Source: Candidatus Uhrbacteria bacterium GW2011_GWE2_46_68 (GTDB lineage: Bacteria > Patescibacteriota > Patescibacteriia > UBA9934 > GWF2-40-263). Taken from it: DNA of 64,000 nucleotides. Within the stretch, counting starts at the first letter, position 1. Each line of letters opens with the position of its first letter. Made by a program: the position numbers and the translations under genes. Below are positions 4,171 to 64,000 of this stretch, piece by piece. The stretch lies in NCBI GenBank assembly GCA_001002765.1, contig LCMS01000010.1:123-64122 (forward strand), read 5' to 3'. The notes below the pieces were generated by a model that ran no database searches, was not told where the DNA came from, and worked only from the letters and a program-made list of their open reading frames with translations.

Positions 4171-4179
4171 GGCTGCTCC

Positions 4180-5838: not shown

Positions 5839-5914
5839 TTCTTTAACCCGAGCTCACAGGAAAACCTATGGTCTCGGGAGAAAGGCCATCACCGTCTGTG
5901 ATGGCTTTGGGGGT

Positions 5915-6874: not shown

Positions 6875-6884
6875 GACTGCCTCC

Positions 6885-8792: not shown

Positions 8793-9176
8793 GGCGCCTC
8801 CTTGGGAAACGGACGAAGTGTCCGATTGGTGAGTTGTTGACCCCTTGTAAGGAGCGTCAGAAGAGAGGTTTTTTGTCTCCAAACCCCTTCGTTCTGAACG
8901 CGAGACCTTAGGGTTTTTTGCCTAAAATGTCAACGATCTGTAGGCGAATCTTTAAGGAAAAAAACAAAAAAAGCCCATTTTTGGCCTCTTCTTGTTTATC
9001 CCTTTATCACACAGGATAAAACAGCAATGTTTGTAAAAAAATTCCACTTTGAATATTTGGTCTGATAATGTTCGTGATCTTTTAGGATAGCTACAGATGT
9101 GGTGTCAGGTCTGACACCAAAATACAAGAATACAAGGCAAAACAAAAAAGAACCTATAGGCTCTCTTTGAAAATTT

Positions 9177-15563: not shown

Positions 15564-15864
15564 ACGGCGAGTACGAAAGAAAGAGTAAGAGATAAGAAAA
15601 GATCTTCGTGATTCTTCTTTTATCTCCCTCCCTTTGGAAGGTTGAAAAACTCCCCCTAAGACACGAAAAGACAATCCCCACGGATTATCTTTTTATGTCA
15701 TGAAGAAAGAAGGACGTCTTTCTTCTTTTCCTCCATCGAAGCGACAAACCACTCGTCCGTACGTTCTACCATATGTTGTGGTCTGCTCTTATTTTAGACC
15801 ACGACATATGGGGTGTCAAAAGAAAAACTTATCCACAGAATCGCACAAAAAACGACGCTCAAAA

Positions 15865-40949: not shown

Positions 40950-42299
40950 TTAAATGATCACCGAGGAACGAGCGCCGGCGTTCTTGTCGTCATCACGAAG
41001 ACTGCTCCTACTGAGGCAAGCTTGTCGTTCAAAACGCCCCCAACATGCATTCGATGTAGGAATGGAAAGAGGGAAAAAAACTCCTGCAAGACAAGAAATG
41101 CTTTCTTTATTATTTTGCCAGTTATCCAATGGTTTTCCTGTTTCAGAAAGATGAATCATAAAGGCCATGATCCAATCTTCCGGAGTCATGCCTGTTTCAC
41201 CGTGATAGGAAGAGTCTTTATCACCTTGAGCTTTTTGAAGAATGGAAAGATATTCAATGGGAGATTTTCCTGTTTCAAGAGGAGGTCGAGGGACGAGGTC
41301 TCCTTGAGGTGTTCCTTGTCCTTCTCTGGGAATAGAAGAAAAGCCCGGGGAATGTGGATTGGAAGGATCAGAAGGCTGGAGAAGATGAACGGTCCAACCG
41401 GGGGTTCCCTCTCCCTTCTCTCCTGCCACCCCTGCAAAGGCAGGGGTCCATCGTCCTTGGGCTTGTTCCTTAAGTATCTCCATCTTGGTCTTCCCCCCAT
41501 GACCCTCTCTTGTAAAAGACTGTGGATAATAGACAAGATTTGGGGAATCCCCTGTGTCTGCTCCTTGATATCTTGGCCATGTCCAGAGAGGAATACTGGT
41601 ATCAAGACCAAAAGAGGAGTGGGACTCTTTATATTTGATGAGAAATTGTTTGAGTGTTTCTCTGAGAGTATCAAGACTCATCCCAAAGGGAACAAGAAGA
41701 AGTTTGGTAAAACCTTGGTCGTGTTTGGTTTTAAGTTCCTCACGGCGTTCAAACAGACGTATGGCGATTTGTTCCAAAGTGGGGATGGGATAGATTTTAC
41801 CGTCTATACCTAGGATAGCTCCTTCTTTAAGTATTCCTGCTTCCTCAAGAAGCTCTACTTGAAAATTATATTGTTCACGAAGATTGTAAAGACGTTCAAT
41901 TTCTTGAAGATGTTTCGGAAGTTTTTCTTTCTTTGGTTCCCCGTTCTTGAGAAGGTATTCAAAACGTTCGAGAAGATCGGCAAGTCGTTTGAGATCTGGA
42001 GTGGAGAGTTTGCCGGCGGCCTCGCGGAGAGCGGAGGGTTTGGAAAGTGTGTCTTTGAAAATCCCATGAACCTTTGTAAAATCAATGATCTCATGTCGCA
42101 GAGTTTCAAAATGCGCTCGGTGTTGTTCGGGAAGAGAATCGCGGACACTTGAAACAGAATCCATGATGGCTTCACCAAGAAGTGCAGAAGACACCGGATC
42201 CCCGCCTGTGCGGGGATGACGGTTGCGGGAAGAGTGTGACTCCACAGGGGTAACGGAGGAACGAGGAGAAAATTCAGGAGATGAACGAACGAAAGACAT
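40950..42299 (-). CDS. multi-copy paralogous family member (intact, 449 aa)
   Basis: Family N-domain with a divergent leader. Optional insert GRWTPAFAGVAGEKGEGTP. Terminal motif GARSSVII. Confidence 0.7.
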   Translation of the reverse strand: MSFVRSSPEFSPRSSVTPVESHSSRNRHPRTGGDPVSSALLGEAIMDSVSSVRDSLPEQHRAHFETLRHEIIDFTKVHGIFKDTLSKPSALREAAGKLSTPDLKRLADLLERFEYLLKNGEPKKEKLPKHLQEIERLYNLREQYNFQVELLEEAGILKEGAILGIDGKIYPIPTLEQIAIRLFERREELKTKHDQGFTKLLLVPFGMSLDTLRETLKQFLIKYKESHSSFGLDTSIPLWTWPRYQGADTGDSPNLVYYPQSFTREGHGGKTKMEILKEQAQGRWTPAFAGVAGEKGEGTPGWTVHLLQPSDPSNPHSPGFSSIPREGQGTPQGDLVPRPPLETGKSPIEYLSILQKAQGDKDSSYHGETGMTPEDWIMAFMIHLSETGKPLDNWQNNKESISCLAGVFFPLSIPTSNACWGRFERQACLSRSSLRDDDKNAGARSSVII

Positions 42300-50866: not shown

Positions 50867-52924
50867 CTAATAGCTCCATGCCCCCACAAAAATACCACCA
50901 CGATCTTCCTCCACATCTGTAAAAAATGTACCGATCAAAGCGGCATGATCATTAAACACGCGAATATGCGGTCCACCTCCGGGTCCCGCAGCTGTGATAA
51001 TAGAAGCCGCGCCTTCCACTTCATCGCTCAAATTCCCCACCGCTACGCGCACCCCTCCGCGAAACGCTTCATCATAAGCAAAAAATGTTCCCATGTGTTG
51101 ACCGAAGCCCGTATAGATTTGCACATGGGGTCCTCCCCCTTGATCAGTTCCTGTGACAATTTCATCAAGTCCATCCCCATTGATATCTCCGGAAGAAACA
51201 TACACACCGTTACTATACGTTTGTGCATAGACAAGAAAGGAAGCGGTCTTTGTTCCGTCAGCTTTATACACATCAATCCACGGCTCGGTTCCCGGACCAT
51301 AACTCAAAATAATCTCATCACGTTTATCACCATCCATGTCCCCCGTGGCAACACGAACGGCCGCATCTTCGTAACGATCAACCGAAATCTGTGAGACTTC
51401 TTCACCTTCCTCATTAAACACACGCACCTCGCTCGATCCGCCCGCCTCGGTACTCACCACAATCTCCTCTTTTCCATCTTGATCCACATCCCCTGTCGCT
51501 ATATAGCATCCTGATGTCATTGTGTATTTGAACGCATCAAACCCTTTTTGCATAGTTCCATCTTGTTCAAACACGCGGATATCCGGTCCGCCTCCTGGCC
51601 CTGGAGCGGAAACAATTTCATCTTCTCCGTCCCCATCCACATCTCCCACAGCCACACGCACCCCACCCGTAAACGTAGAATCGTACGCAAGAAATTCTTT
51701 GAGCAAAACACCAGACTTTGCAAATACACGGATCAATGGCGGAGCACCTGCGGCCGGCACGACAATAATATTTGTGCTTGGAATAATGGTGACCTCATCC
51801 ACACTGACCGAAGAAACGGGCTCGGCAAAATTTGCCGCAATCTCAAACGCACGCTCCACATTCACACGCCCTGCCCCCATATCTGCGTGTTTAATCGGAC
51901 CCGACTCCACCACAGGATCCACGGATATTTTCAAAATAGTCTGTATCTCCCCCACAGTGAGACTGGGATAATAACTCCACAAAAGCGCGGCGGCCCCGGA
52001 AATCACAGGTGCGGCCAAAGAGGTTCCTGACCACTGCCCCATGTATTCTTCTTCATCAAACCCTTCCCAATCCTCATCAAAATAATAGGTGGAATAAAAA
52101 TTCTCTCCGGGTGCGGAAATATCCACACAGGTGGAACCATAATTGGAAAATATCGTCTTCTCATCCTCTGCATTTGTAGCCGCAACTCCCAGTACCCAAT
52201 CATCATCACTTTGACTTCCAAAACATGCGGGGTAGACGGGTTGTACATTTGTGTTTACACCACCCGAACTTAAATTACCGACCGCAGCGACCACCAAAAC
52301 ACCGGCCTCATACGCCTCGCGCACAGCTGCACGCAAACGGTTATCTGCGTCATACCCGGAAAAACTCAAATTAATGATCTTCGCCCCCTGTGCCACAGCA
52401 TACTCAATCGCCTCGGTTACATCTGTGGATAATCCGGCTCCATAATTATCCATCACGCGCAACGCCATAATTTTTGAATTCCAACTCATACCCGCCACCC
52501 CCTTGTCATTATCTGTCACAGCTGCAATGACACCTGCAATCATCGTGCCATGAGGAACCGAACCCTCATCAAACCCTTCTTCCACGTCCGGAGTAGGCGT
52601 TGCGTCTTCTCCCACAAAATCCCAACCATAGACATCATCAATATATCCATTGTCATCATTATCGATTCCGTCCCCCATTTTTTCTTCTTCATTAATCCAT
52701 ATATGCTCTTCCAAATCCTCGTGATCCAAATCCACACCTGTATCTAAAACCGCCACTATGATCTCATCGGATCCTGTCGTCGTATCCCACACGTTTGAAA
52801 CACCGATAAAATTCAAATACCATTGATCGAGATAATAAAAATCATTGGGCACTTGAGCGAAGACAGGATGTGCCACAAGAAAAAAAATCACAAGAAGAAA
52901 AAAACTTTTTTGAAAATACTTCAT
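50867..52924 (-). CDS. subtilisin-like serine peptidase (S8) with C-terminal FG-GAP/beta-propeller-like repeats
   Basis: Signal peptide. Asp region VAVLDTGVDLDHEDL, His region HGTMIAGVIAA and Ser region GTSLAAPVISGAAALL. The C-terminal 300 aa carry repeated GGxxxRVF...DG..DE units. Confidence 0.8.
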   Translation of the reverse strand: MKYFQKSFFLLVIFFLVAHPVFAQVPNDFYYLDQWYLNFIGVSNVWDTTTGSDEIIVAVLDTGVDLDHEDLEEHIWINEEEKMGDGIDNDDNGYIDDVYGWDFVGEDATPTPDVEEGFDEGSVPHGTMIAGVIAAVTDNDKGVAGMSWNSKIMALRVMDNYGAGLSTDVTEAIEYAVAQGAKIINLSFSGYDADNRLRAAVREAYEAGVLVVAAVGNLSSGGVNTNVQPVYPACFGSQSDDDWVLGVAATNAEDEKTIFSNYGSTCVDISAPGENFYSTYYFDEDWEGFDEEEYMGQWSGTSLAAPVISGAAALLWSYYPSLTVGEIQTILKISVDPVVESGPIKHADMGAGRVNVERAFEIAANFAEPVSSVSVDEVTIIPSTNIIVVPAAGAPPLIRVFAKSGVLLKEFLAYDSTFTGGVRVAVGDVDGDGEDEIVSAPGPGGGPDIRVFEQDGTMQKGFDAFKYTMTSGCYIATGDVDQDGKEEIVVSTEAGGSSEVRVFNEEGEEVSQISVDRYEDAAVRVATGDMDGDKRDEIILSYGPGTEPWIDVYKADGTKTASFLVYAQTYSNGVYVSSGDINGDGLDEIVTGTDQGGGPHVQIYTGFGQHMGTFFAYDEAFRGGVRVAVGNLSDEVEGAASIITAAGPGGGPHIRVFNDHAALIGTFFTDVEEDRGGIFVGAWSY

Positions 52925-52926
52925 AC

Positions 52927-55008
52927 TTATAATGCAATGGTTCCGCCGAAACGGGATGACTCATCTCCCACAAAAAATCCACCGATGACATCACCGTTTT
53001 TATTAAACACTCGGACATGCGGTCCTCCGCTTGAAACGGGAATCGTGTAAATTTCACTCTCCCCATTTTGATCAAGATCACCCACAACTGTCTGCACCCC
53101 GCCTAAAAAATCGATGGGATAGGTAATGAAAGATTGCTGCAGCGCTCCAAACGCATCATGCACAAACACGCGTGAAACCGTTCCCTGACCAAAAGAAATC
53201 ACAATATCATTGTGTCCGTCTCGATCCACGTCTCCCACGCTCACCAAACGCTCGCTTGTGTGTAACCCCAGAGGATCATCGAGCGTGGACACATACTTTC
53301 CTGTCCCTTCGTACACGCGCACAGCCCCCTCGCTCCCCCCCCGACAGACAACAAGTTCGTCCGCGCTATCCTCGTCCAAATTTCCAGCCTCCACACGAAC
53401 AGATGCGCTCGTCCGATCAAAAGGACTGAAAAATCCAATCAATACTCCATCTTTTGTAAAATAACGAACTTGTCCTGTTCCACCCTCATCTTGCGACACA
53501 ATAATTTCTTGCAATCCATCTCCATTGATATCCCCGGTTGTCACAAACAATCCCGATCGATCATCTTCATCAAAAGCAAAAAATTGTGAAAGCACTCGAC
53601 CACTTGGATCAAACACGCGCACCTGCGGACCTCCTCCCGGACCTGGTACTGTCACAATCTCTCCGTCTCCGTCCCCGTCGGTATCGGTAACGGTCATGCG
53701 CACTCCTCCCAAAAATGATTCCGCATAGGCGAAAAAAGAATGCAACACATCCCCATCTTTTGTTACCTCAAAAATCAACGGAGCAGATCCTGCACCTTGA
53801 GCAAAGATAAGCTGAGAAGAAAGATAACCATCAGTGACAACGCGACCCTCTCCTTTTTCCATCAATTGTCTGGACACATCCAAGGCACTGGCAATATCAA
53901 GACGACCATTTCCCATAGCTTGGCGCGCCAAAGCTGAAGATTCTTCCACAGGGTCAGCGGAAAGACGCAATAAGCGAATAATCTGCTCGGGTGTCAACGT
54001 GGGATAGGCGGCTTTCATGAGTGCAGCCGCTCCGGCAACTAAAGGAGCCGCGACCGATGTCCCCTCCCAAGGTCCGCCATAGGGAGTGGAAAGCAAAAGA
54101 TAATCCGGATCATGATACACCGTGCCGAGTATATCTATTCCCGGAGCGGAAATATCCACGCAACCTTTTCCATAATTGGAAAAAGAAACTTTCGCATCTG
54201 TGCGATCGGTTGCCCCAACCCCGATCACCATATTCTCGCTTTGAAATAAATCATAACAAGCGGGAAAAACCGGAGACAATAAAAGATCCGTGTTGTCATT
54301 TCCAACCGATGTGACAATCACAACCCCCTGGTCATACGCCCAACGAATGGTTTCCAAAAGTTGAGTGTCTTGTTGCGTGGTGGTAAAACTCAAATTGATG
54401 ACATCCGCGCCATTATCAACCGCGTAGCGAATCGCCTGACGCACATCATACGTATACCCTGTCCCATCGGTGTTCAAAATACGTAGTGGCATAATTTCCA
54501 CATCCCAAAGAATGCCCGCAATCCCTTTTCCATTATCTCCTACCGCACCGATAAGTCCTGCCACCAAAGTCCCGTGAGAAACAATGGTGTCGGAAAAATT
54601 TTCCGTGATCTCGGGAGAAGGGTTCCCATTCCCGCTCACAAAATCCCATCCATCATAATCATCTTCAAAACCATTGTGATCATTATCAATACCATCTTCG
54701 GGAATCTCATTTTCATTTTTCCAAAGATTGCCTTCCAAATCGGGATGATCCAGATCAATACCTGAATCGAGAACGGCTACAATGACATCGGAGGAACCTG
54801 TGGACATATCCCAAGATGCCGGGGAACGCAACGTTTCCAAATACCATTGTCCTGAATACAAAAAATCATTTGGCACCAAAGCCGCAGTAGTAAGAGGAAA
54901 AAAGAGAAAAATAACGCTTAAAATTGTGAGGATCTGTCGATACAGCCTTTGCATAACGATTCGTATTGTAGCTTGGGATGTCTTAATTGGAAACCTTGAC
55001 CGCTTCAC
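52927..55008 (-). CDS. subtilisin-like serine peptidase (S8) with C-terminal FG-GAP/beta-propeller-like repeats (tandem paralog)
   Basis: VAVLDSGIDLDHPDL, HGTLVAGLIGA, GTSVAAPLVAGAAALM. Same architecture as the upstream gene. Confidence 0.8.
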   Translation of the reverse strand: MKRSRFPIKTSQATIRIVMQRLYRQILTILSVIFLFFPLTTAALVPNDFLYSGQWYLETLRSPASWDMSTGSSDVIVAVLDSGIDLDHPDLEGNLWKNENEIPEDGIDNDHNGFEDDYDGWDFVSGNGNPSPEITENFSDTIVSHGTLVAGLIGAVGDNGKGIAGILWDVEIMPLRILNTDGTGYTYDVRQAIRYAVDNGADVINLSFTTTQQDTQLLETIRWAYDQGVVIVTSVGNDNTDLLLSPVFPACYDLFQSENMVIGVGATDRTDAKVSFSNYGKGCVDISAPGIDILGTVYHDPDYLLLSTPYGGPWEGTSVAAPLVAGAAALMKAAYPTLTPEQIIRLLRLSADPVEESSALARQAMGNGRLDIASALDVSRQLMEKGEGRVVTDGYLSSQLIFAQGAGSAPLIFEVTKDGDVLHSFFAYAESFLGGVRMTVTDTDGDGDGEIVTVPGPGGGPQVRVFDPSGRVLSQFFAFDEDDRSGLFVTTGDINGDGLQEIIVSQDEGGTGQVRYFTKDGVLIGFFSPFDRTSASVRVEAGNLDEDSADELVVCRGGSEGAVRVYEGTGKYVSTLDDPLGLHTSERLVSVGDVDRDGHNDIVISFGQGTVSRVFVHDAFGALQQSFITYPIDFLGGVQTVVGDLDQNGESEIYTIPVSSGGPHVRVFNKNGDVIGGFFVGDESSRFGGTIAL

Positions 55009-55591: not shown

Positions 55592-56752
55592 TTAGATGAG
55601 AACCGAGGTGCGAATACCTCTATACCAATAAGTACCGTACCCTTCATCCAATATTGCCTCATGGCAATCTCTATCCCAATAGGCTAGAGGTAAGTAAAGA
55701 GCAAAAGGAAAAAAGGCCCCGATAAGATAGGATTGTTTTTCCATACCGTTTTTATAATCATCCATTGGTTGTCCCTTTTCTGTAAGGTGGGTCATAAAAG
55801 CAATGATCCAATCTTCGGGAGTAAGTCCTGTTTCACCATGATAGGGAGAGTTTTTATCACCTTGAGCTTTTTGAAGAATGGAAAGATATTCATTGGGAGA
55901 TTCTCCTGCTTCAAGAGGAGGTCGAGGGACAAAGTCTCCTTGGGGTGTTCCTTGGCCTTTGCGGGAAATGGAAGCAAAGCCCGGGGAATCTGAATCAGAA
56001 GGATTCGAGGGTTGGAAAAGATGAACAGTCCACCCTGGAAAGGAATCTTGATTGTCTTCTTGTTCTTTGAGTATCTGTGCTTTTGTCTTTCCTTGATGAC
56101 CTGTCAGATCAAAAGACTGTGGCTTGTAAACAAGGTTTGGGGAATCTCCTGTGTCTCCTCCCCACAATGCACAAAGAGATTCATGGGCATTGAGATTAAA
56201 AAAAGAATTCTTTTGTTTGTAAGCAATAAGAAATTGTTTGAGGGTTTCTTGGAGAGCATCAAGGCTCATCCCGAATGGAACAAGGAGGAGTTTGGTAAAA
56301 CCTTGGTCGTGTTTAGTAGAAAGTTCCTCGCGGCGTTCAAACAGACGCATGGCGACTTGTTCCAAGGTGGGGATGGAATAGGTATTACCATCTATGCCTA
56401 GGATAGCTCCTTCTTTGAGTATTCCTACTTCCTTAAGAAGGTTAAATTGAAAAGTGTATTGTTCACGAAGACTATAAAGACGTTCAATTTCTTGAAGATG
56501 TTCAGGGAATTTTTCTTTCTTTGGTTCCCCATTCTTAAGAAGATACTCAAAGCGTTCAAGAAGGAGAGCGAGTCGCTCAAGATCTGAAGTGGAGAGTTTG
56601 CTAGTAGCCTCGCGCAGGAGGTCAGGCTTACCAAGAGATTCTCTAGAAATCCCGTGAGCTTTTGTAAAATCAATAATCTCTTGTCGTAAAGTTTCAAAGT
56701 GTGCGCGATATTGTTCGGGCAAAGAATCACGGACACTTGAAACCGAATCCAT
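55592..56752 (-). CDS. multi-copy paralogous family member (386 aa; leader removed by deletion, starts at the conserved MDSVSS)
   Basis: Family N-domain and terminal motif GIRTSVLI. Upstream remnant MSLCGTKGDSVF* shows a deletion relative to the leader of the copy at 24287. Confidence 0.65.
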   Translation of the reverse strand: MDSVSSVRDSLPEQYRAHFETLRQEIIDFTKAHGISRESLGKPDLLREATSKLSTSDLERLALLLERFEYLLKNGEPKKEKFPEHLQEIERLYSLREQYTFQFNLLKEVGILKEGAILGIDGNTYSIPTLEQVAMRLFERREELSTKHDQGFTKLLLVPFGMSLDALQETLKQFLIAYKQKNSFFNLNAHESLCALWGGDTGDSPNLVYKPQSFDLTGHQGKTKAQILKEQEDNQDSFPGWTVHLFQPSNPSDSDSPGFASISRKGQGTPQGDFVPRPPLEAGESPNEYLSILQKAQGDKNSPYHGETGLTPEDWIIAFMTHLTEKGQPMDDYKNGMEKQSYLIGAFFPFALYLPLAYWDRDCHEAILDEGYGTYWYRGIRTSVLI

Positions 56753-56837
56753 GATGGCTTCGTGGAGAGTAGCGGATAAAGGAGGTTCAGAAGACAGAGT
56801 CCCCCTTCGTCCCGCAAAGAGACATAAATATCAAAGG

Positions 56838-58109
56838 TTAAACCACCACCGAAGACCGCAAACCAATGGCCCCAACCCGAGTACGAGGACCACCCCTGTC
56901 GAGGTTAGCCCGACAGCTATCACGGCTCCAAGACACGCAAGGCACACGGGAGGAGAAGCGAAAAAAAACTCCTGTAAGGTAAGAGATACTTTCTTTGTTT
57001 GTGGGATTCCATGCATCATCAAGAGGTTGTCCTGTTTCAGAAAGATGAATCATAAAAGCTGTGATCCAATCTTCGGGAGTCATGCCTGTTTCACCATGAT
57101 AGGGAGAGTCTTTGTCACCTTGAGCTTTTTGAAGAATGGAAAGATATCCATTGGGGATTTTACCTGCTTCAAGAGGAGGTCGATCCCTCCCTTCGCGAAG
57201 GGAGGGATGGGGTGTTCCTTGGCCTTCTCTGGGGATGGGAGCAAAGCCTTTGGGAGTTTCAGTGTCTTGTTCGTTCGGGTTTGATGGTTGAAGAAGATGA
57301 ACAGTCCAACCGGGGGTTCCCAATCCCTTCCCTCCTGCCACCCCTGCAAAGGCGGTCCCGCCTGTGGCGGATCCCGCCGTAGGCGGGAGGGTCCATCGTC
57401 CTTTGGCTTGTTCCTTAAGCATCTCCATCTTGGTCTTTCCTTGATGATCTTTCGGATCAAAAGACTGTGGATAGTAGACAATGTCTGGAAAATCTCCTAT
57501 GTCTGCTCTTTTATATCCTTCACCCGTCCAGAGAGGATCTTCGGTATCAAGATCAAATGAGGAGTGGGACTCTTTATATTTGAGTAGGAATTGTTTGAAG
57601 GTTTCTCGGAGAGTATCAAGGCTCATGCCAAAGGGAACAAGAAGAAGTTTGGTAAAGCCTTGGTCGTGTTTAGTCTCGAGAGTCTCACGGCGTTCAAACA
57701 GACGCATGGCGATTTGTTCCAAGGTGGGGATGGGATAAGTGTTACCGTCTATGCCTAGGATGGCTCCTTCTTTGAGGATGCCTACTTCTTTAAGAAGGTT
57801 AAATTGAAAAGTGTATTGTTCACGAAGATTGTAAAGACGCTCAACTTCTTGAAGATGTTTAGGGAGTTCTTCTTTCTTTGGTTCCCCATTCTTAAGCAGA
57901 TATTCAAAACGTTCAAGAAGGAGAGCGAGTCGTTCAAGATCTTGGGTAGAAAGTTTTTTTGTAGCCTCGCGCAGGAGGTTAGGCTTGCCAAGAGATTCTC
58001 TGGAAATCCCATGAACTTTTGTAAAATCAATGATCTCTTGTCGCAGAGTTTCAAAATGTGCGCGATATTGTTCAGGTAAAGAATCGCGAACACTTGAAAC
58101 AGAATCCAT
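56838..58109 (-). CDS. multi-copy paralogous family member (423 aa, starts at MDSVSS)
   Basis: Family N-domain. Insert with tandem palindromic units (TLPPTAGSATGGTAFAGVAGGKG). Terminal motif GLRSSVVV. A leader remnant without a start codon abuts the uvrD stop. Confidence 0.7.
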   Translation of the reverse strand: MDSVSSVRDSLPEQYRAHFETLRQEIIDFTKVHGISRESLGKPNLLREATKKLSTQDLERLALLLERFEYLLKNGEPKKEELPKHLQEVERLYNLREQYTFQFNLLKEVGILKEGAILGIDGNTYPIPTLEQIAMRLFERRETLETKHDQGFTKLLLVPFGMSLDTLRETFKQFLLKYKESHSSFDLDTEDPLWTGEGYKRADIGDFPDIVYYPQSFDPKDHQGKTKMEMLKEQAKGRWTLPPTAGSATGGTAFAGVAGGKGLGTPGWTVHLLQPSNPNEQDTETPKGFAPIPREGQGTPHPSLREGRDRPPLEAGKIPNGYLSILQKAQGDKDSPYHGETGMTPEDWITAFMIHLSETGQPLDDAWNPTNKESISYLTGVFFRFSSRVPCVSWSRDSCRANLDRGGPRTRVGAIGLRSSVVV

Positions 58110-58192
58110 GACGGCTTCGTGGAGAGTAGCGGATAAAGGAGGTTCAGAAGACAGAGTCCCCCTTCGTCCCGCCGTTGGCGGGACTTCGTTTA

Positions 58193-60262
58193 TTATAACT
58201 CCTCCACACTGCGAAGAAAGCTCCCTTTTGATTTACGTGGGGGCGAGGATGGGCGTTCCCCAAGATCATCAAGCACAATCACCGGATCTTCGTTTTGCCA
58301 ATTCGCACCGGTGGAAAGAGAAGGGGGTAAACGCGAAGCTTCCAAAAATTGTGAGGGAATCTCTTCCAAAAACAACGAGGGCTGTTGGAAAAGTGTGCTC
58401 TCTCCATTGCCCATCATAGGATAGGTGTAATACAAACGACGACGCGCGCGGGTAGTGGCTACATAAAAAAGACGGCGCTCTTCCTCCAACCCTTCCTCTT
58501 CCTCAAGCGCGCGCGGATGCGGAAATTTATCTTGCGCCAAATGTATTAAAAACACGGTATTCCATTCCAACCCCTTGGCTTGATGAATTGTGGATAAAAC
58601 CATGCGATCCTGATCCCCTCTTTGCTCGTTTGCTTGAAATGTTTCCGTAAGCGCAATCTCATCTAAAAATATTTGCGTCTCTTTATACCCCTCCGCAAAC
58701 ACTGCGAACTGTTCAAGATCATCCAAACGATCGCGAAAATCGGGATATTCTCCTTGCGCATAATCTTCGTAAAAATGGGCCACGGTTGCACGGATCATAT
58801 CAGAAGGAAGTTGATTGCCTGAAAGGATATGACGAAGCGCGCCGACAAAAAGATTCCATCCGGACTGCGCTCGACGATCAATGACAAATGTTCTCTCACA
58901 AATCTCTTCAAGTTTTCCGATCCCCTGCACTTGCATGATAATTTTTTGCGCGGTGGTCGCTCCCACACCGGGTAACATCTCCAATACACGCATCCATGAC
59001 GCCGTATCTTTTGGATTGGAAACGAGACGCAAAAAACTTACCACATCTTTAATGTGTGCGCGCTCAAAAAACTTCATCCCCCCGCGATACTCGTAGGGAA
59101 TATTGCGTTTGATAAGTTCGAACTCGAGCGCTTGCGAATGAAACGCCGCACGAAACAAAACCGCCATCTCACGAAGTGGTTCTCCCCTGCGATGATGATC
59201 ACGAACTTGAGAGACAATATAATCTGCCTCCTTGGCCGCGGAAAGAGCCGGGGCCAATCGCGGTTTTTCAAAAGAAGGACAATGAGCCTGTAGATGTTTT
59301 TCAAACTGATGCACATTGTGGGTGATACTTGCATTGGCCACATGGAGAATCTCGGGAGAGGATCGGTAATTGGTAGTGAGACGAAAGGTGCGTGTCCCGG
59401 GAAACAGCTCGGGAAATCGCAAAATATTTTTGATCTCGGCCGCGCGAAAACTGTAAATGCTCTGGGCATCATCTCCCACAATAAGGACGTTGCGATGGAC
59501 TTGGGCTAAGAGGCGCACAATATCCGCCTGCACAATATTAGTGTCCTGGTATTCATCCACCAAAATGTATTGAAACTGATGGGAAAGATGCTGTGCCGTT
59601 TCGGGATGGTTCAAAAGAAGATCGCGCAGATGCAAAAGCAAATCATCAAAATCCATGACATCGGCCTCGTGTTTTTTCATGGCATACACATCAGCGAGTC
59701 GTTCGAGAACGGGAATCAAATCATAAAAATTGTGCAAACGCTTTTCCACAACCTCACGAATCGGACGATTGGCATTGCGGCTGTAACTGATCAAATCTTG
59801 TACGCTCGAAGGAGAAGGGAAACGACGAGCGGACGTATCAAGTTGCATCTCTTTGATGCAGGACTTGATAAGACTGCGGCTGTCTTCCTGATCTAAAATC
59901 GTAAAATTTTGCGTGAAGCCGATTTTGGGAGCGTAGTGGCGCAAGAGTCGATTAGCGATCGAATGGAATGTGCCCGACCATAATCCCTGTGGATGAAATC
60001 CCAAAAGGGATTCCACGCGCTCCAGCATTTGTTTGGCTGCCTTATTGGTAAAGGTGAGCAAAAGAATACGCGATGGGATCACACCTTTGGAAAGAAGATA
60101 AGCGACGCGATAGGTAATGGTTCTTGTTTTTCCTGATCCGGCTCCGGCAAGGACAAGACAAGGTCCGTCACCATCACGCACAACTCCCCATTGTTCGGTG
60201 TTGAGTTCGTGTTCAAAATCGATGGGGGAAACAAGGTTCATAATGACAGTATGGTAACACAT
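58193..60262 (-). CDS. uvrD: ATP-dependent DNA helicase, UvrD/PcrA/Rep family (SF1)
   Basis: Walker A AGAGSGKT, helicase motifs II (VDEYQDTN), III, V and VI (VATTRAR). 689 aa. Confidence 0.85.
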   Translation of the reverse strand: MCYHTVIMNLVSPIDFEHELNTEQWGVVRDGDGPCLVLAGAGSGKTRTITYRVAYLLSKGVIPSRILLLTFTNKAAKQMLERVESLLGFHPQGLWSGTFHSIANRLLRHYAPKIGFTQNFTILDQEDSRSLIKSCIKEMQLDTSARRFPSPSSVQDLISYSRNANRPIREVVEKRLHNFYDLIPVLERLADVYAMKKHEADVMDFDDLLLHLRDLLLNHPETAQHLSHQFQYILVDEYQDTNIVQADIVRLLAQVHRNVLIVGDDAQSIYSFRAAEIKNILRFPELFPGTRTFRLTTNYRSSPEILHVANASITHNVHQFEKHLQAHCPSFEKPRLAPALSAAKEADYIVSQVRDHHRRGEPLREMAVLFRAAFHSQALEFELIKRNIPYEYRGGMKFFERAHIKDVVSFLRLVSNPKDTASWMRVLEMLPGVGATTAQKIIMQVQGIGKLEEICERTFVIDRRAQSGWNLFVGALRHILSGNQLPSDMIRATVAHFYEDYAQGEYPDFRDRLDDLEQFAVFAEGYKETQIFLDEIALTETFQANEQRGDQDRMVLSTIHQAKGLEWNTVFLIHLAQDKFPHPRALEEEEGLEEERRLFYVATTRARRRLYYTYPMMGNGESTLFQQPSLFLEEIPSQFLEASRLPPSLSTGANWQNEDPVIVLDDLGERPSSPPRKSKGSFLRSVEEL

Positions 60263-60323
60263 TTACAGATCCCCTATGACCCCTAAGACCTGTCTTTGGA
60301 GGATAAGAAAAACCCCGAGCACT

Positions 60324-60713
60324 TCAGATGCAGGGGGCGCGTGGAAAAAAGGCAATATAGGTAAGACGTTGTGATAATTCGTGATGCTGTGCACAAAGGA
60401 TCATCAAAGAAAGCAAGACCTTACTTTTTTCTTTTTCTCCCAAGAGATGGGCATCGCGTATTCCTACATCTACGATCATCCGTCGCCTTCTGTGCGTGCA
60501 AGCGATCATACGCCGCACCTCGACCGATCCGTCTTTGGAACAAAGAACATATTGGCGCAACGCCGCTTGGTCGAAAAAAAAGATTTCCTCATGTGCCCCA
60601 ATCACGATCTCTCTTCCTTCCCATCCGTGGAAAAAATAGCGCTCAAAAAATCCAAATCCATACCGTCGCTTTGTAAACCATCGCACCCCGACCAAATGAG
60701 CAGACGAAGTCAT
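60324..60713 (-). CDS. hypothetical protein
   Basis: 129-aa ORF. A 171-aa plus-strand ORF overlaps it, so the coding strand is uncertain. No motifs recognised. Confidence 0.25.
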   Translation of the reverse strand: MTSSAHLVGVRWFTKRRYGFGFFERYFFHGWEGREIVIGAHEEIFFFDQAALRQYVLCSKDGSVEVRRMIACTHRRRRMIVDVGIRDAHLLGEKEKSKVLLSLMILCAQHHELSQRLTYIAFFPRAPCI

Positions 60714-60747
60714 GATGCACCTCTGAAAGGATTGGGGGGTCTATTGG

Positions 60748-60803
60748 GGGGTCAGGTCCGGACATCGGACTTTTTCCAAAAAGTCCGATGTCCGGACCTG
60801 ACC
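60748..60803. repeat. 56-nt near-perfect palindrome (28-nt arms) sharing the GGGGGTCAGGTC end motif with the 45.1-kb MITE-like element
   Basis: GGGTCAGGTCCGGACATCGGACTTTTT | CCAAAAAGTCCGATGTCCGGACCTGACCC. It is preceded by a TGGGGGGTC direct duplication and lies between mltG and the downstream ORF. Confidence 0.6.
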
Positions 60804-60808
60804 CTACA

Positions 60809-61837
60809 TTATTTCAAATACCTATACTTATGCGCGATGTGTTCCTCATACGTCTGTGCATATTTCATGTCCCCTTCAGGTGTGGTCAAAAAATAAAAAT
60901 ATGCGGTGGGTGTTGGCTCCAATACCGCGTTTAGCGCATTCATCCCCGGATTACCAATGGGGCCAGGCGGCAAGCCCACCACTTGATAGGTGTTGTACGG
61001 CGAGTTGATCGCCTGATCTTCCGCACTCACTCCTGGATCATTTTTTCCCGTAATAAAATTAACGGTTGAACACGCTTGCAGGGCCATACCGATTTCCAAA
61101 CGCTTCAAAAAAATTCCGGCCACAATTTTCATATCTTCTTCCGTAGCCGCTTCTTTTTCCACGATCGAGGCCACGGTCAATAATTCATGAAAAGTAAGTC
61201 CATTTTCCATCACCAAATCATCCGGAATCACCACTCCCGTTTCAGACAACCGACGCTTTAACGTTAAAACCATAGTCTCGGCGATCACGTCGGCTGTTAC
61301 ATCTGTACGAAAACGATAGGTATCAGGAAACAGATATCCTTCGAGTCCTTGTCCCTTCGGAATCCCTCCAAGAATATGCGTTCCCGACGCAAACAAAGAA
61401 CTCTCGACCCCTGTGGCCACCTCCCAAAGAGAAGAAGAAAAATTCGGGAACGCTACCATAATCACCTCCTCCATATTTTTGAGTGTGTATCCTTCGGGAA
61501 ATGTCACTCGCACCTCTTGCGCTTGCGCATTGGTAAGTACAGCAACCAGGGTGCGGTAACTCAATCCGGGTTCCAAGGAAAACATACCGGACTGAAAATC
61601 GGTTTGTGTTCCCGTAAGCCATACATACCACTCAAAAAATCGCGGACTGACGAGCAGGCCCTCTTGTTTCAATCGCTCGCTGATCACCTTCACACTTTCT
61701 CCACTATTCACAACAAAAGTCGTAGCGGAAATATCTCCGGAAGGAGAAGCTAAAAAGGCATCCCATACAAAGGCGCCACTCAAGACCGTTCCCGCCAAAA
61801 GCAAAGTAGCAAAAATCACAAGACATCCTCGTATCAT
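60809..61837 (-). CDS. mltG: endolytic murein transglycosylase MltG (YceG-like)
   Basis: N-terminal TM. C-terminal YceG signature (YNTYQVVGLPPGPIGNPGMNALNAVLEPTPTAYFYF). Confidence 0.75.
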   Translation of the reverse strand: MIRGCLVIFATLLLAGTVLSGAFVWDAFLASPSGDISATTFVVNSGESVKVISERLKQEGLLVSPRFFEWYVWLTGTQTDFQSGMFSLEPGLSYRTLVAVLTNAQAQEVRVTFPEGYTLKNMEEVIMVAFPNFSSSLWEVATGVESSLFASGTHILGGIPKGQGLEGYLFPDTYRFRTDVTADVIAETMVLTLKRRLSETGVVIPDDLVMENGLTFHELLTVASIVEKEAATEEDMKIVAGIFLKRLEIGMALQACSTVNFITGKNDPGVSAEDQAINSPYNTYQVVGLPPGPIGNPGMNALNAVLEPTPTAYFYFLTTPEGDMKYAQTYEEHIAHKYRYLK

Positions 61838-62919
61838 AAAAGATGTTGATGACCACTTTGGGCCAAGAGTTGAACAATTTCTTTCACACGTTGTGCTTGA
61901 TCTTTTCGACAGACGAGCAAAGCATCCTTTGTATCCACGATGATCAAATCTTGTACCCCCAATACCGTCACTTTTTTTTCGGGAACTCCATAAACTAAAG
62001 ATCCTGTGCTATCAAGGACAAGGCAATCCCCTTTCACGACGTTTTGATATCCATCCTGTGAAAGACAGTGGTACAAGGTGTCCCAAGCACCAATATCACT
62101 CCACCCAAAATCTCCGCGAATCACAAGCACATTTTGCGGATCCATTTCTTCGGTCACTGCATAGTCAAAAGAAATTTTTGGAAGCTCTCCGTACAAAACA
62201 ATAGCATGTGCACATCCTTCTTGTGTTTTCTCACGTAAACATTCCTGAATCTGACGAAACACTTCCCCCATCTTTGGAGCACATGTGTCAAACGCTTCCA
62301 TGAATTTACGCGGCGTCCACATGTAATAATTGGCGTGCCACAAATAATCACCTTGCGCCAAATATTGTTTAGCGATTTCATAAGACGGCTTTTCGGTGTG
62401 TCCCAAAAAAGTATACACGCGAATATTTTCTTTTTCTTCAAAGACCTCTCCCACATGCGTATAGCCAAGCACCGTGCTTGGAAATTGCGGCTCGATGCTG
62501 ATATCCAAAAGTTTCCCTGTTTCCAAAATCAACCTCTCTCCTGTTTGCAGACAATACAAAAACATTTCCTCATCCTTGATGTAATGATCGGATGGAACAA
62601 ACACGATCGGTTCATCCGGATCGGAAAGTTCCAGGAGGGCGGCCACATATCCCATAGCCGGGCCGGTATCGCGTTTTTCCGGCTCGATAAAAATGCGCTC
62701 CGGCGGAACCTCGGGAAGATGCGTATGCAAGTGTTCCTCAAACCCCGGAGAAATGGAAAAATAAATTTTTTCCTGCGGGAGCCATCGCAGAAGTCGGCGA
62801 TAGGTATCACAAATCAATGATTCCTCCCCTATCAAATCCGTAAATTGCTTGGGGTGTGTACTGCGGCTCATGGGCCACAGCCTTGTCCCCGCTCCGCCGG
62901 CAAGAATAATAGCTTTCAT
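61834..62919 (-). CDS. manC: mannose-1-phosphate guanylyltransferase
   Basis: MKAIILAGGAGTRLWPMSRSTHPKQF, the sugar-nucleotidyltransferase G-x-G-T-R-L-x-P signature. 361 aa. Confidence 0.8.
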   Translation of the reverse strand: MKAIILAGGAGTRLWPMSRSTHPKQFTDLIGEESLICDTYRRLLRWLPQEKIYFSISPGFEEHLHTHLPEVPPERIFIEPEKRDTGPAMGYVAALLELSDPDEPIVFVPSDHYIKDEEMFLYCLQTGERLILETGKLLDISIEPQFPSTVLGYTHVGEVFEEKENIRVYTFLGHTEKPSYEIAKQYLAQGDYLWHANYYMWTPRKFMEAFDTCAPKMGEVFRQIQECLREKTQEGCAHAIVLYGELPKISFDYAVTEEMDPQNVLVIRGDFGWSDIGAWDTLYHCLSQDGYQNVVKGDCLVLDSTGSLVYGVPEKKVTVLGVQDLIIVDTKDALLVCRKDQAQRVKEIVQLLAQSGHQHLL

Positions 62920-62925
62920 AGTTAT

Positions 62926-64000
62926 TTAAATGATCACTGAGGAACGTAAGCCAAATCCAATATCTGCAATATCACAACGATGACTTCCCGCATAGACCTG
63001 TAACAAACTGGAGTTCCAATCCATAAAAGGCGTACGAAGAGAAGAAGGAAAAAAAGCTCCCGTAAGATAAGAGGTATTTATGTCGCGAGTTAATGATGCA
63101 TCTATGGGTTTTCCCGTTTCTACAAAATGTGTCATAAAAACCATGATCCAATCTTCAGGAGTGAGGCCGGATTCTTGGAAGTAGGGGGAGCTAGAGTTGC
63201 CTCGAGCTTCTTCAAGAATGGAAAGATATTCCGTGGGAGTTTTGTTTGCTTCAAAAGGGGGACGGAAATTCTCGTCTCCTCGGAGTGTTCTTTGGTCTTT
63301 TTGGGAAATGGTGGCAAAGCCTTTGAGAGTTTTGGTATTTGAGGGTTGAAAGAAATGAGCCGTCCAGCCTGGAAAAAAATTTTGGTTATCCTCTTGTCCC
63401 TCAAGTATCTGCATTTTGGTCTTTCCTCGATGACCATTTTCTTCAAAAAACTTTGGATAATAAACAAGACTGGGAGTATCTCCTCTGTCTGCTCCTTGAT
63501 AACGCTTCTGAATGGCAAAAGAATAGGAATCGCTAATATCAAGATCGGGATGAGACTCTTTGTAAGAAAGAAAAAATTGTTTGAACGTTTCTATGAGAAC
63601 ATCAAGGCTCATACCAAAGGGAACGAGAAGGAGTTTGGTAAAGCCTTGGTCGTGTTTGGTGCGGAGGATTTCTCGGCGTTCAAAGAGACGAATGGCGATT
63701 TGTTCGAGTGTGGGGATGGGATAGGTATTACCATCTATGCCTTTGATCGCATCACCCATGAGAATCCCGACTTGTTCAAGAAGTTCGACTTGAGAATCGT
63801 ATTGTTCTTTGAGGCGATAGTGTTCCTCGGCATACTCAAGGGCTTCTTTGTTTGTCCAAGGTTCCTTCTTAACAATGAGGTGTTCAAAGCGCTCAAGAAG
63901 ATTGGCAAGCCGCTCGAGGTTGGGAGTGGAGAGTTTCTCGGCAGCTTTGCGGAGGAGATCGGGTTTGGCAAGCGCTTCTCTTGGAATCCCTTGAGCTTGT
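62926..64000 (-). CDS. multi-copy paralogous family member, 5' end beyond the window edge
   Basis: The reading frame is open from 62926 to the window end. The upstream in-frame translation (…LSTPNLERLANLLERFEHLIVKKEP…) matches the family N-domain. Terminal motif GLRSSVII. Confidence 0.6.
   Translation of the reverse strand, partial: QAQGIPREALAKPDLLRKAAEKLSTPNLERLANLLERFEHLIVKKEPWTNKEALEYAEEHYRLKEQYDSQVELLEQVGILMGDAIKGIDGNTYPIPTLEQIAIRLFERREILRTKHDQGFTKLLLVPFGMSLDVLIETFKQFFLSYKESHPDLDISDSYSFAIQKRYQGADRGDTPSLVYYPKFFEENGHRGKTKMQILEGQEDNQNFFPGWTAHFFQPSNTKTLKGFATISQKDQRTLRGDENFRPPFEANKTPTEYLSILEEARGNSSSPYFQESGLTPEDWIMVFMTHFVETGKPIDASLTRDINTSYLTGAFFPSSLRTPFMDWNSSLLQVYAGSHRCDIADIGFGLRSSVII

Follow-up and report, generated by a model that had tools for sequence, protein, structure and literature searches.

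Nested, in-frame palindromic units resembling Rickettsia palindromic elements in the linkers of an Uhrbacteria-related protein family

A discrete 33-nt double hairpin, designated N33, has been precisely gained or lost in members of a highly mosaic multigene family that is brought to notice here and has no annotation. It is one of several GC-rich palindromes located in the variable linkers of the encoded proteins, and these are units of DNA rather than peptide motifs, the same modules recurring at different sites, in both orientations, and in different reading frames. The tentatively favoured reading, to which a probability of about 0.4 is assigned, is that the palindromes are nucleic-acid-level cassettes copied non-reciprocally among three linker sites by hairpin-guided template switching or very short-patch gene conversion.

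In-frame 'selfish' palindromes have so far been viewed as mostly a peculiarity of Rickettsia. By analogy, the palindromes described here would behave like Rickettsia palindromic elements (RPEs), yet they are smaller, nested, and mostly restricted to one family; they occur in an Uhrbacteria-related lineage of the candidate phyla radiation with a small genome and are turning over in natural populations. A literature search gave no report of palindromic or MITE-like repeats in bacteria of the candidate phyla radiation, Uhrbacteria included.

An unannotated family with three hypervariable linkers

The window (the whole stretch of DNA analysed, 64,000 nt) contains 9–10 paralogs of a protein of about 430 aa, which together account for around 20% of its length. 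The member that carries N33 is p56838. Most copies are full-length open reading frames (ORFs), and those in the window are as follows:

16720–17736, minus strand: p16720, divergent, C-terminal part truncated
22978–24287, minus strand: p22978, frameshifted, two ORFs
33626–34876, minus strand: p33626, shortest leader, hairpins absent
38391–39650, minus strand: p38391
39654–40946, minus strand: p39654
40950–42299, minus strand: p40950
55592–56752, minus strand: p55592, short 23-aa HV2 without hairpin
56838–58109, minus strand: p56838, carrying N33; the present ORF starts MDSVSS
62926–64000, minus strand: last paralog, crossing the window end

Three more paralogs lie past the last of these on contig L080, and at least 13 are counted in approximately 70 kb. 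Pfam and NCBIfam searches with the family protein gave zero matches, and neither a signal peptide nor a known surface domain was found in it. The closest database relatives carry the label Candidatus Uhrbacteria, and a scan of genome contigs returned four distant loci only. In an episymbiotic lineage, such a family may serve in host interaction or variation.

Each protein contains three hypervariable linkers—HV1 (the N-terminal leader), HV2, and HV3—and it is here that the palindromes sit. All three have a pLDDT below 50 in an AlphaFold2 model whose mean pLDDT is only 61, and a Foldseek comparison of this model with the PDB gave no match below E = 1. All 30 leaders examined, of 16 different lengths, are open and in frame, and the short 23-aa form makes up 21 of the 58 HV2 copies among family homologs. 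As modelled, HV1–HV3 would be permissive sites for cassettes.

Palindromes are concentrated in the family

The pattern CCCGCC-N3-5-GGCGGG has three matches in the window (24217–24231, 57373–57387, and 58168–58182; 0.02 expected), and CCCCTGC-N4-GCAGGGG has two (23472–23489 and 41429–41446; 0.00 expected). Every palindrome listed in an earlier sequence-only reading of this DNA was found where it had been placed, far above chance expectation; that list, however, omitted 57183–57208, 40877–40894, and the imperfect copies at 39581–39598 and 17667–17684. The palindromes of the family, N33 apart, are as follows:

17667–17684, minus strand: module (a), imperfect, in HV1 of p16720; CCCCTGC GGAG GTGGGGG
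23471–23490, minus strand: module (a) palindrome in HV2 of p22978; gene strand ACCCCTGC-CTCC-GCAGGGGT, encoding TPASAGV
24215–24233, minus strand: module (c) hairpin in the HV1 leader of p22978, encoding VPPTAGR
39581–39598, minus strand: module (a), imperfect, in HV1 of p38391; CCCTTGC GGAG GTAGGGG, where pairing survives only as sense-strand G·U wobbles
40877–40894, minus strand: module (a) in HV1 of p39654; sense orientation, TCCCTGC GGAG GCAGGGG
41428–41447, minus strand: module (a) palindrome in HV2 of p40950; gene strand ACCCCTGC-CTTT-GCAGGGGT, encoding TPAFAGV
42198–42217, minus strand: module (b) palindrome in HV1 of p40950; gene strand ATCCCCGC-ACAG-GCGGGGAT, plus-strand loop CTGT
56809–56825, minus strand: leader remnant of p55592; ATGTCTCTTT fused directly to GCGGGAC
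57183–57208, minus strand: module (d) in HV3 of p56838; 26-nt perfect palindrome ATCCCTCCCTTCGCGAAGGGAGGGAT, encoding HPSLREGRD
58166–58184, minus strand: module (c) hairpin in the decapitated leader of p56838; gene strand GTCCCGCC-AAC-GGCGGGAC

Modules (a)–(d) measure 17–26 nt and units overall 17–36 nt, an element (e) of about 100 nt apart. Module (b) corresponds to module (a) with two compensatory double changes, and palindromes of the module (d) type also occur in HV1 leaders of other family members. Most variants are old and common to many homologs in other metagenomes. None of modules (a), (b), (d), and (f), nor N33, was found outside the family in the window and related loci; the core motif CCCGCC-N3-GGCGGG and (c)-type hairpins are present outside it too.

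The window contains 21 perfect GC-rich hairpins, against a shuffle mean of 7.2. Across 774 kb, comprising the window and related contigs, hairpins with a stem of at least 7 occur at 0.385 per kb in family DNA versus 0.082 per kb elsewhere (4.7-fold; binomial p = 1e-13), an enrichment that the sequence-only reading had put forward for checking; within the window, 7 of 11 such hairpins fall in the family's 20% of the DNA. Its further statements were also borne out: alignments of the minus-strand paralogs place all the palindromes in frame, other copies lack them at the same position, and they are GC-richer than their surroundings (76% GC for N33 versus about 45% for the window).

Palindromes of this kind could in principle be a by-product of Pro/Ala/Gly-rich linker peptides, whose CCN, GCN, and GGN codons are mutually complementary, or the result of chance. 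For TPA-x-AGV alone, synonymous-codon shuffling yields an 8-bp stem in about 6% of trials, and the module (a) sites at 23471–23490, 40878–40893, and 41428–41447 are each nonsignificant (P ~0.06). At 4 of the 7 sites, however, stems exceed the peptide requirement (P from <5e-5 to 0.009; P < 5e-5 at 24215–24233 and P = 0.00015 at 57183–57208), and pattern counts stand far above shuffles. The same DNA also gives different peptides in different frames and orientations, stems are retained despite amino-acid change, and synonymous positions of N33 are conserved. Shuffling, stem maintenance, N33 conservation, and multi-frame reading together essentially refute this explanation, which is left with scarcely any probability.

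N33 is nested at a fixed point of another palindrome

N33 lies within the HV2 linker of p56838, where it splits a copy of module (a):

57300–57440, minus strand: HV2 linker of p56838 (GKTK...GWTV), 47-aa variant
57341–57355, minus strand: left arm, loop, and first 4 nt of the right arm of module (a); plus strand CCCCTGC AAAG GCGG
57356–57388, minus strand: N33, double hairpin; plus strand TCCCGCCTGTGGCGGATCCCGCCGTAGGCGGGA; the gene strand encodes (L)PPTAGSATGG
57389–57398, minus strand: rest of the right arm of module (a) (GGG) and conserved flank TCCATCG

The stretch 57351–57394 reads as first described, and the optional unit proposed at 57357–57387 does exist; it measures 33 nt, however, encoding 11 aa (LPPTAGSATGG) and not 17 aa. 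Its second hairpin, initially parsed as CCCGCC-GTAG-GCGGG, is better read as TCCCGCC-GTA-GGCGGGA (57372–57388), with a 7-bp stem. The ends of N33 are TCCC and GGGA, with GTAG found only across the loop of this second hairpin. Position 57354, within module (a), is G in the window and A in the empty allele.

A further 19 copies of N33 were found in 18 related loci, all at one point of module (a), an 18–20-nt palindrome whose right arm they split behind its fourth base; the insertion point is always GCAG^GGG of modules (a)/(b). The host palindrome is older than the nested N33, and its stem is disrupted when N33 enters. Mean pairwise identity is 97.9% for N33 and 78.6% for the flanks, and departures from consensus affect 6 of 561 positions in N33 versus 88 of 629 in the flanking 37 nt (p = 3e-19); loops and spacer are invariant as well. 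The 5 copies of N33 in HV1 are in sense orientation and the 15 in HV2, that of the window included, in antisense; one gene, on L039, carries N33 in both linkers. It is stop-free in 5 of 6 frames and is read in different ways (PPVADPAVGG versus PPTAGSATGG). Viral contigs do not contain N33, and a viral origin is rejected on that ground.

Presence, absence, and recent turnover

The positional ortholog of p56838 on contig L080 lacks N33. The two sequences are 100% identical over the 5,812 nt from 58189 to 64000, and inside p56838 their sole differences are the N33 indel with one adjacent base, a divergent patch of about 140 nt, and a 57-nt leader indel. A second precise 33-nt N33 indel separates L009 from L065, which are identical for at least 100 nt on either side, and neither target duplication nor microhomology was seen at the two precise N33 junctions. 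N33 is thus a discrete unit, precisely gained or lost; the direction of each event, gain or loss, we infer. An insert universally present in orthologs had been named as the contrary outcome, and the comparison instead shows genes that are otherwise identical and differ in the exact presence or absence of N33. The family is multi-copy and all the sequences derive from metagenomes assembled from short reads, and hence some 'alleles' could be paralogs or assembly chimeras.

In a megablast screen, indels of at least 9 nt between contigs at least 96% identical all lie in HV regions of the family. Contigs L081 and L082 are 99%–100% identical except for exchange of a whole HV2 cassette and a patch beside the HV1 palindrome, and cassette swaps in near-clonal backgrounds, like the fixed nesting point of N33, are observed directly. 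HV2 type is almost uncorrelated with flank phylogeny. A flank-identity screen of loci differing in HV length gave no pair above 89%; close pairs of this kind were found by protein-based and megablast screens. No donor was found for the 140-nt patch of p56838.

Borrelia vlsE, Treponema tprK, and Neisseria pilE/pilS are segmental gene-conversion variation systems, and they share with this family a multi-copy organisation in which short hypervariable cassettes are swapped in otherwise identical backgrounds. The family might itself be a programmed variation system, with the palindromes as cis-acting initiators or boundaries of cassette exchange; its at least 13 tandem or clustered paralogs, the whole-cassette swaps and patches in 99%–100% identical backgrounds, the decoupling of HV2 type from flank phylogeny, and two leader deletions that terminate at a palindrome would fit such a system. 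The palindromic cassettes, however, have no counterpart in the known systems, and tract ends are not concentrated at HV sites. Nor was an expression locus with silent donors identified here, most copies being full-length ORFs, and the protein offers no signal peptide, known surface domain, or fold match. A programmed system is considered quite improbable.

A diversity-generating retroelement target was also rejected, as no reverse transcriptase occurs among the 30 window ORFs scanned against Pfam and variation proceeds by cassettes and indels rather than A-to-N changes.

Inversion between linkers and maintenance of stems

A paralog about 7 kb away in the same genome has an HV1 leader that matches the antisense strand of window positions 57326–57397 at 64 of 72 nt, and the N33 portion is identical at all 33 nt. 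Loops read GGAG in HV1 and CTCC or CTTT in HV2, and flipped loops form the pairs GGAG/CTCC, TGT/ACA, and GGA/TCC; one module, read in different ways, specifies two peptides, TPASAGV and GPLPPQGL. Local alignment of the flanks only, HV1 against inverted HV2, was nonsignificant on average (25.3 versus 22.9 ± 3.5). Loop orientation, anchored flanks, and the 72-nt match together indicate that HV1 and HV2 are inverted relative to each other. The HV3 variant of L009, for its part, resembles a local inverted duplication.

Changes on both sides of the stem affect 5 of 8 pairs in HV1 and 3 of 8 in HV2 (UA↔CG, CG↔UA, and GC↔AU), counted in sequences chosen beforehand for having transition-only mismatches, a choice that inflates the percentage paired. 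Double-sided changes turn PAEAG into PTEVG, and comparison of the copies shows the module (a) stem to be kept through compensatory changes that alter amino acids.

Such pairing would also be expected if the hairpins were selected functional nucleic-acid structures, for example, mRNA stem-loops at domain boundaries with roles in ribosome pausing, transcript protection, or regulator binding, their conservation then reflecting function and not mobility. In addition to the compensatory double changes, HV1 mismatches in the inner seven pairs are mostly sense-strand G·U (13 versus 5 other), the hairpins lie at borders of confidently modelled regions, and hairpins resembling those of the family flank tRNA genes, where they are probably 3′-end or terminator structures. 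However, HV2 shows no sense-strand wobble bias (4 versus 5), and many functional-looking paralogs have no HV2 or HV3 hairpin, as in the 21 of 58 HV2 copies with the short form. The invariance of the N33 loops and spacer goes beyond what selection on structure requires, and N33 breaks the module (a) stem. Folding z-scores are modest (−1.6 sense and −3.1 antisense), and folding energies of the focal span are not decisive, since shuffles of GC-rich sequence fold well too. Template switching is moreover able to mimic compensatory evolution (PMC8794818). Selected function is judged unlikely as the explanation. A scan against Rfam identified tRNAs only, with the palindromes matching no known RNA family.

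Element (e) and comparison with known repeats

Element (e) is a compound palindromic element of about 100 nt (about 90–110 nt), with terminal inverted repeats ctcggcaaccCCCTC ... GAGGGGtggttgccgag of approximately 15–17 nt. Some copies form in-frame parts of family leaders, and others are intergenic, upstream of unrelated genes, a distribution that, by analogy, suggests RPE-like behaviour.

RPEs are palindromic repeats of approximately 100–150 bp found in frame in ORFs across many unrelated genes, in the account of Ogata et al. (2000, 2002) given in PMC10969869. The resemblance noted in the sequence-only reading holds insofar as the palindromes are in-frame units at the DNA level, that add peptide segments at what may be tolerated positions, that have copies in non-coding DNA too (here element (e)), that encode no transposase of their own, and whose presence varies between related genomes. 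It fails in size (33 nt for N33 and 17–36 nt for units, with only element (e) near RPE length), in the old age of most variants, and in confinement: the units here are nested and, except for (c) and (e), restricted to the three linkers of a single family of paralogs. They are also sense at one site and antisense at another, and the host is a candidate-phyla-radiation bacterium, whereas that of RPEs is an alphaproteobacterium.

REPs are extragenic, high-copy, and marked by a terminal GTAG or CGTC tag (PMC3733652). The present palindromes resemble REPs and BIMEs in being small (20–40 nt), GC-rich, imperfect, often clustered in tandem or nested, and free of target-site duplication, and hairpin-based recognition of the kind seen there is plausible by analogy. 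Unlike REPs, they are intragenic, few per genome (a handful in the window), and untagged at their ends, and no RAYT occurs among the 30 window ORFs scanned against Pfam. With MITEs (Correia/NEMIS, ERIC, and BOX; PMC10969869), element (e) shares its length, terminal inverted repeats, position upstream of genes, and ability to form part of an ORF by read-through; terminal inverted repeats in the MITE sense, in contrast, are lacking in N33 and modules (a)–(d), the two N33 junctions show no target-site duplication, and no insertion sequence was seen in the window ORFs that were scanned. In PARCELs, which often lie in membrane proteins, an amphipathic repeat of 25 residues is arrayed in tandem (PMC2996958). 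They too are coding repeats with DNA dyad symmetry that form variable peptide modules shuffled within genomes, but their 25-residue motif and tandem architecture are absent from the family alignments.

N33 and element (e) could be non-autonomous mobile elements, moved in trans by a hairpin-recognising enzyme encoded elsewhere (REP/RAYT-, IS200/IS605-, or IS110-like), with site- or structure-specific insertion into the module (a) hairpin and no target duplication. The sharp boundaries of N33, its 98% identity across diverged hosts, its single insertion point in at least four host-stem variants, each both filled and empty, and its two precise indels without microhomology are all consistent with this. 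So are the terminal inverted repeats of element (e), intergenic and in frame in leaders, and the presence of the core CCCGCC-N3-GGCGGG outside the family. On the other side, a Pfam scan of 30 window ORFs turned up no transposase, reverse transcriptase, or recombinase, N33 was never found outside the family or in viral contigs, and the end of N33 is missing the REP-type 5′ GTAG/CGTC tag. The orientation of N33 relative to module (a) is always fixed, which a single origin would explain as well. Movement by such an enzyme is regarded as somewhat doubtful.

A more specific proposal is that N33, a 36-nt sibling, and element (e) constitute a new class of mobile hairpins that are ultra-small (17–36 nt), home by structure into coding-sequence hairpins of candidate-phyla-radiation bacteria, are currently active in natural populations, and generate linker diversity. 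We consider this rather doubtful; were it true, a large and rapidly recombining protein family would possess a built-in generator of linker diversity.

Proposed copying of cassettes by template switching or short-patch conversion

Under the favoured reading, the cassettes (N33, module (a), and other GC-rich palindromes) would be transferred in copy-paste fashion between the three permissive linker sites of paralogs, landing in one orientation or the other and in varying reading frames. Copies would persist as intact genes only if they preserved the frame and introduced no stop, and it is this filter that would make cassettes look like optional peptide modules. Transfer would most likely occur during replication or repair, through template switching guided by hairpins or through gene conversion over very short patches. 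Because a GC-rich palindrome equals its reverse complement, it offers homology in both orientations, and the same process may re-perfect stems, giving rise to apparent compensatory changes. An element-encoded enzyme would be unnecessary, the enzymology being presumably that of template switching or conversion.

Template switching is known to create and maintain perfect hairpins and to flip their loops (PMC8794818). Its hallmarks—perfect stems arising in one step, multi-base 'compensatory' changes, inverted loops, and local inverted duplication—have likenesses here in the double-sided changes, the flipped loops, an HV2 that aligns as inverted HV1 (64 of 72 nt), and the HV3 variant of L009. It has, however, been described for local events in RNA genes (PMC8794818), whereas here one 33-nt unit with defined ends occupies the same point in about 20 protein-coding copies. 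Against homologous conversion, conservation falls exactly at both N33 boundaries, which fits defined-end insertion better, and the variable bases directly flanking N33 belong to at least four host variants, each filled and empty. The donor-less 140-nt patch, the nonsignificant flank-only alignment, and the unclustered tract ends also count against the favoured model.

With its defined length of 33 nt, its defined target in another hairpin, and filled and empty alleles that occur naturally, N33 offers a concrete test substrate. With it, one may address whether template switching or a hairpin-specific enzyme copies hairpin DNA into genes, and how such insertions make new protein segments.

Tract ends and leader deletions

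A recombination hot-spot had been offered as the alternative to RPE-like insertion. Ends of identical tracts of at least 60 aa between divergent homologs are spread over the whole gene and do not cluster at palindromes, and the palindromes are rejected as preferred recombination breakpoints.

Two leader deletions in the window end in or beside a palindrome. The leader of p56838 carries a 57-nt deletion relative to L080, with its junction at 58188/58189, 5 nt upstream of the module (c) hairpin. That of p55592 carries a 56-nt deletion with an endpoint within the (c) palindrome, which causes a frameshift in the leader.

Host family and its hypervariable linkers

The coding palindromes of the window all lie on the minus strand, within 9–10 paralogs of one ~430-aa family, named here by p and the start coordinate.

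Family paralogs in the window
16720-17736, minus strand, divergent and truncated within the C-terminal third, probably a pseudogene
22978-24287, minus strand, split into two ORFs by a frameshift, probably a pseudogene
33626-34876, minus strand
38391-39650, minus strand
39654-40946, minus strand
40950-42299, minus strand
55592-56752, minus strand (p55592)
56838-58109, minus strand (p56838)
62926-64000+, minus strand

At least 13 copies occur within about 70 kb (window 16720-64000 plus 1-5256 of the related contig L080), surrounded by housekeeping, glycosyltransferase, and protease genes. The family is remarkable in its own right for a small candidate-phyla-radiation-type genome, being high in copy number and pervasively mosaic. 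It has 292 database relatives (E ≤ 0.001), the named ones labelled Candidatus Uhrbacteria, a candidate-phyla-radiation lineage, and no Pfam, NCBIfam, or structural match.

Alignment of the window paralogs with 120 homologs and 75 metagenome loci reveals three length-variable segments separated by conserved blocks.

Hypervariable linkers
HV1, N-terminal leader, MSLFRP... to ...EAIMDSVSS, 24-198 nt
HV2, GKTKxEIL to GWTV, 23-55 aa
HV3, GQGT to RPPLE, 17-29 aa

All three fall below a pLDDT of 50 in an AlphaFold2 model (mean pLDDT 61). HV1 is open and in frame in 30/30 cases, which points to a leader that is translated or at least frame-constrained. Perfect GC-rich hairpins occur in several long HV variants and in none of the 27–29-aa TNYKLP type of HV2. 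A TNYQLP-type HV2 cassette (L039 3433-3555) carries an expanded (Thr-Pro) run (TPTPTPTPTPTPTQ), so linker length also varies through microsatellite-like expansion.

Palindromic modules

The sequence-only reading had described in-frame, GC-rich palindromic mini-elements, and the sequence at 57351-57394, in HV2 of p56838, matches that description. The two motifs given in that reading, CCCGCC-N3-5-GGCGGG (24217, 57373, and 58168) and CCCCTGC-N4-GCAGGGG (23472 and 41429), occur three times and twice against expectations of 0.02 and 0. A general scan counts 21 perfect GC-rich hairpins in the window (shuffle mean 7.2) and adds a 26-nt perfect palindrome at 57183-57208 and CCCTGC-CTCC-GCAGGG at 40878-40893. 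They are concentrated in the family: over 774 kb of non-redundant sequence, family DNA holds hairpins with stems of at least 7 at 4.7 times the density found elsewhere (p 1e-13). Six module types, each found at more than one HV site, are distinguished.

Module types
(a) ACCCCTGC-N4-GCAGGGGT
(b) ATCCCCGC-N4-GCGGGGAT, differs from (a) by two compensatory double changes
(c) (G)TCCCGCC-N3-GGCGGGA(C)
(d) 26-nt palindrome, ATCCCTCCC-NTCGCGAN-GGGAGGGAT
(e) CTCCCCCTT-N3-AAGGGGGAG together with CCCCTCCTT-N3-AAGGAGGGG
(f) ACCCCGGG-TCAAG-CCCGGGGT

The palindromes are modules at the DNA level. Module (a) is sense in HV1 (loop GGAG), encoding ATPAEAGV, and antisense in HV2 (sense loop CTCC/CTTT), encoding WTPASAGV; three leaders hold an HV2-oriented copy in another reading frame, GPLPPQGL. 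Two-sided stem changes alter the protein yet keep pairing (for example, PAEAG to PTEVG), and are seen at 5/8 pairs in HV1 (n = 26) and 3/8 in HV2 (n = 14). Slid controls fall to about 50% pairing or less; the sequences counted were preselected for transition-type mismatches, which inflates the percentage paired and leaves the double changes unaffected. Under synonymous-codon shuffling, stems exceed what the peptide demands at 4/7 window sites (P <5e-5 to 0.009), with three module (a) sites at P about 0.06 each. That the stems are selected mRNA or DNA structures is, overall, an improbable account.

A nested, polymorphic unit

N33, a 33-nt double hairpin at 57356-57388 (plus strand TCCCGCCTGTGGCGGATCCCGCCGTAGGCGGGA), sits between GCGG and GGG of the right arm of a module (a). 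The insert is not universal: L080, from another assembly and syntenic with window 58189-64000 (100% identical over 5,812 nt), has an ortholog of p56838 lacking exactly these 33 nt. Position 57354 is A there and G in the window, and the two genes also differ by a ~140-nt patch at about 75% identity. A second precise presence/absence, between L009 and L065, has flanks identical for at least 100 nt, no junction microhomology, and a different host stem (CCCCCAC..GTGGGGG). Because all the DNA comes from short-read metagenome assemblies of a multi-copy family, such allelic differences may in part be paralogous or chimeric, and these and the leader indels are unpolarised as to gain or loss.

There are 19 further copies in 18 loci, only within the host family. 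Within modules (a)/(b) the insertion point is constant, and N33 runs sense in HV1 copies but antisense in those of HV2; one gene has N33 at both sites, and at least four host-stem variants are known both filled and empty. The copies are 97.9% identical versus 78.6% for the adjoining 37 nt (departures from consensus 6/561 versus 88/629, p 3e-19). About 7 kb off in the same genome, a paralog's HV1 leader matches the antisense of 57326-57397 (64/72 nt), its N33 portion identical. N33 is stop-free in 5/6 frames; its peptide is PPVADPAVGG at HV1 and PPTAGSATGG at HV2. At the same insertion point, five copies hold a 36-nt sibling. N33 is a young, discrete, still-polymorphic unit.

Contig pairs of at least 96% identity, screened without bias, showed five indels of at least 9 nt, all in HV regions of the family; the N33 difference between L009 and L065 is one of them. 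Two family genes of the window lack leader start codons through deletions of 56 and 57 nt: that in p55592 has an endpoint inside a (c)-type hairpin, and that in p56838, relative to L080, ends 5 nt from a (c) hairpin, which suggests palindrome-associated deletion.

Leader-deletion sites
56809-56825 and 58185-58189, at hairpin GTCCCGCC-AAC-GGCGGGAC

Mosaicism and mechanism

HV2 type and flank phylogeny are nearly uncorrelated (distance 0.27 within types, 0.28 between), and in many gene pairs one half is nearly identical and the other divergent. L081 and L082, 99–100% identical elsewhere, have exchanged the whole HV2 cassette and also differ in a short patch adjoining the HV1 (d) palindrome. Tract ends are nevertheless scattered along the whole gene, so the proposal that palindromes are recombination hot-spots is not specifically supported: they are not demonstrably preferred breakpoints.

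The data show nucleic-acid cassettes copied among permissive linkers regardless of orientation and frame, then filtered by reading frame. An artefact of composition or peptide is essentially refuted by the synonymous shuffle, two-sided stem changes, N33 conservation, and frame-differing peptides. We favour, at a probability of roughly 0.4, hairpin-guided template switching or very short-patch conversion, which would be anchored on the self-complementary arms, because no enzyme is evident (a Pfam scan of 30 window ORFs found no transposase, recombinase, or reverse transcriptase), copies are inverted, stems are re-perfected, and mosaicism is pervasive; inverted copies and re-perfected stems are known signatures of template switching (PMC8794818). 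A hairpin-targeting element mobilised in trans, to which the sharp N33 boundaries and fixed target across diverse stems point, is a strong rival, if a less probable one. A programmed variation system is improbable.

The suggested likeness to Rickettsia palindromic elements (PMC10969869) stands in part: the modules are in frame, palindromic, and optional, but differ in size and dispersal. REP/RAYT, MITE, PARCEL, and diversity-generating retroelement definitions each fail on at least one tested feature, the MITE definition applying in part to element (e) only. A literature search turned up no account of elements of this kind in Uhrbacteria or in any other candidate-phyla-radiation bacteria.

Relatives outside the family and other features

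The compound palindromic element (e) is ~90–110 nt long, has 15–17-nt terminal inverted repeats, and encloses two hairpins. L067, L072, and L077 carry it upstream of unrelated genes, whereas in four family members (L022, L028, L043, and L070) it forms an in-frame, read-through part of the leader. Its nearest likeness is a Rickettsia palindromic element or a MITE.

Compound element
L067 19956-20065, 20755-20860
L072 4191-4310
L077 3974-4020, 4394-4466
L022 7244-7334
L028 156-318
L043 4700-4812

In related contigs, hairpins with the core CCCGCC-N3-GGCGGG adjoin tRNA genes directly on the 3′ side. Those of type AGTCC(A/C)GCC-WWW-GGC(T/G)GGACT occur at L043 6607-6627 and 6746-6766 and at L066 5548-5568 and 5657-5677; both L043 copies (loops flipped, TTT versus AAA) and L066 5657-5677 immediately follow tRNA genes. 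The tRNA-adjoining hairpins, which have the same core motif as the coding hairpins, are probably 3′-end or terminator structures.

The general scan also added a perfect 56-nt intergenic palindrome at 60749-60804 (26-bp stem, 4-nt centre), missing from the sequence-only reading, between a UvrD/PcrA-like helicase gene and a YceG gene. It is kept at ~88–90% in the related contigs L058 and L059 and in part in L041, and could be a bidirectional terminator or protein-binding site.

Window 1-9000, at 50–58% GC versus about 45% in the remainder, encodes OmpA-like and SsuA-like binding-domain proteins and may be a compositionally distinct island. Two tandem genes at 50867-55008 fuse S8 subtilase domains to FG-GAP repeats, and 12339-15674 encodes a long (1,111-aa) class II ribonucleotide reductase with ATP-cone and TSCPD domains.
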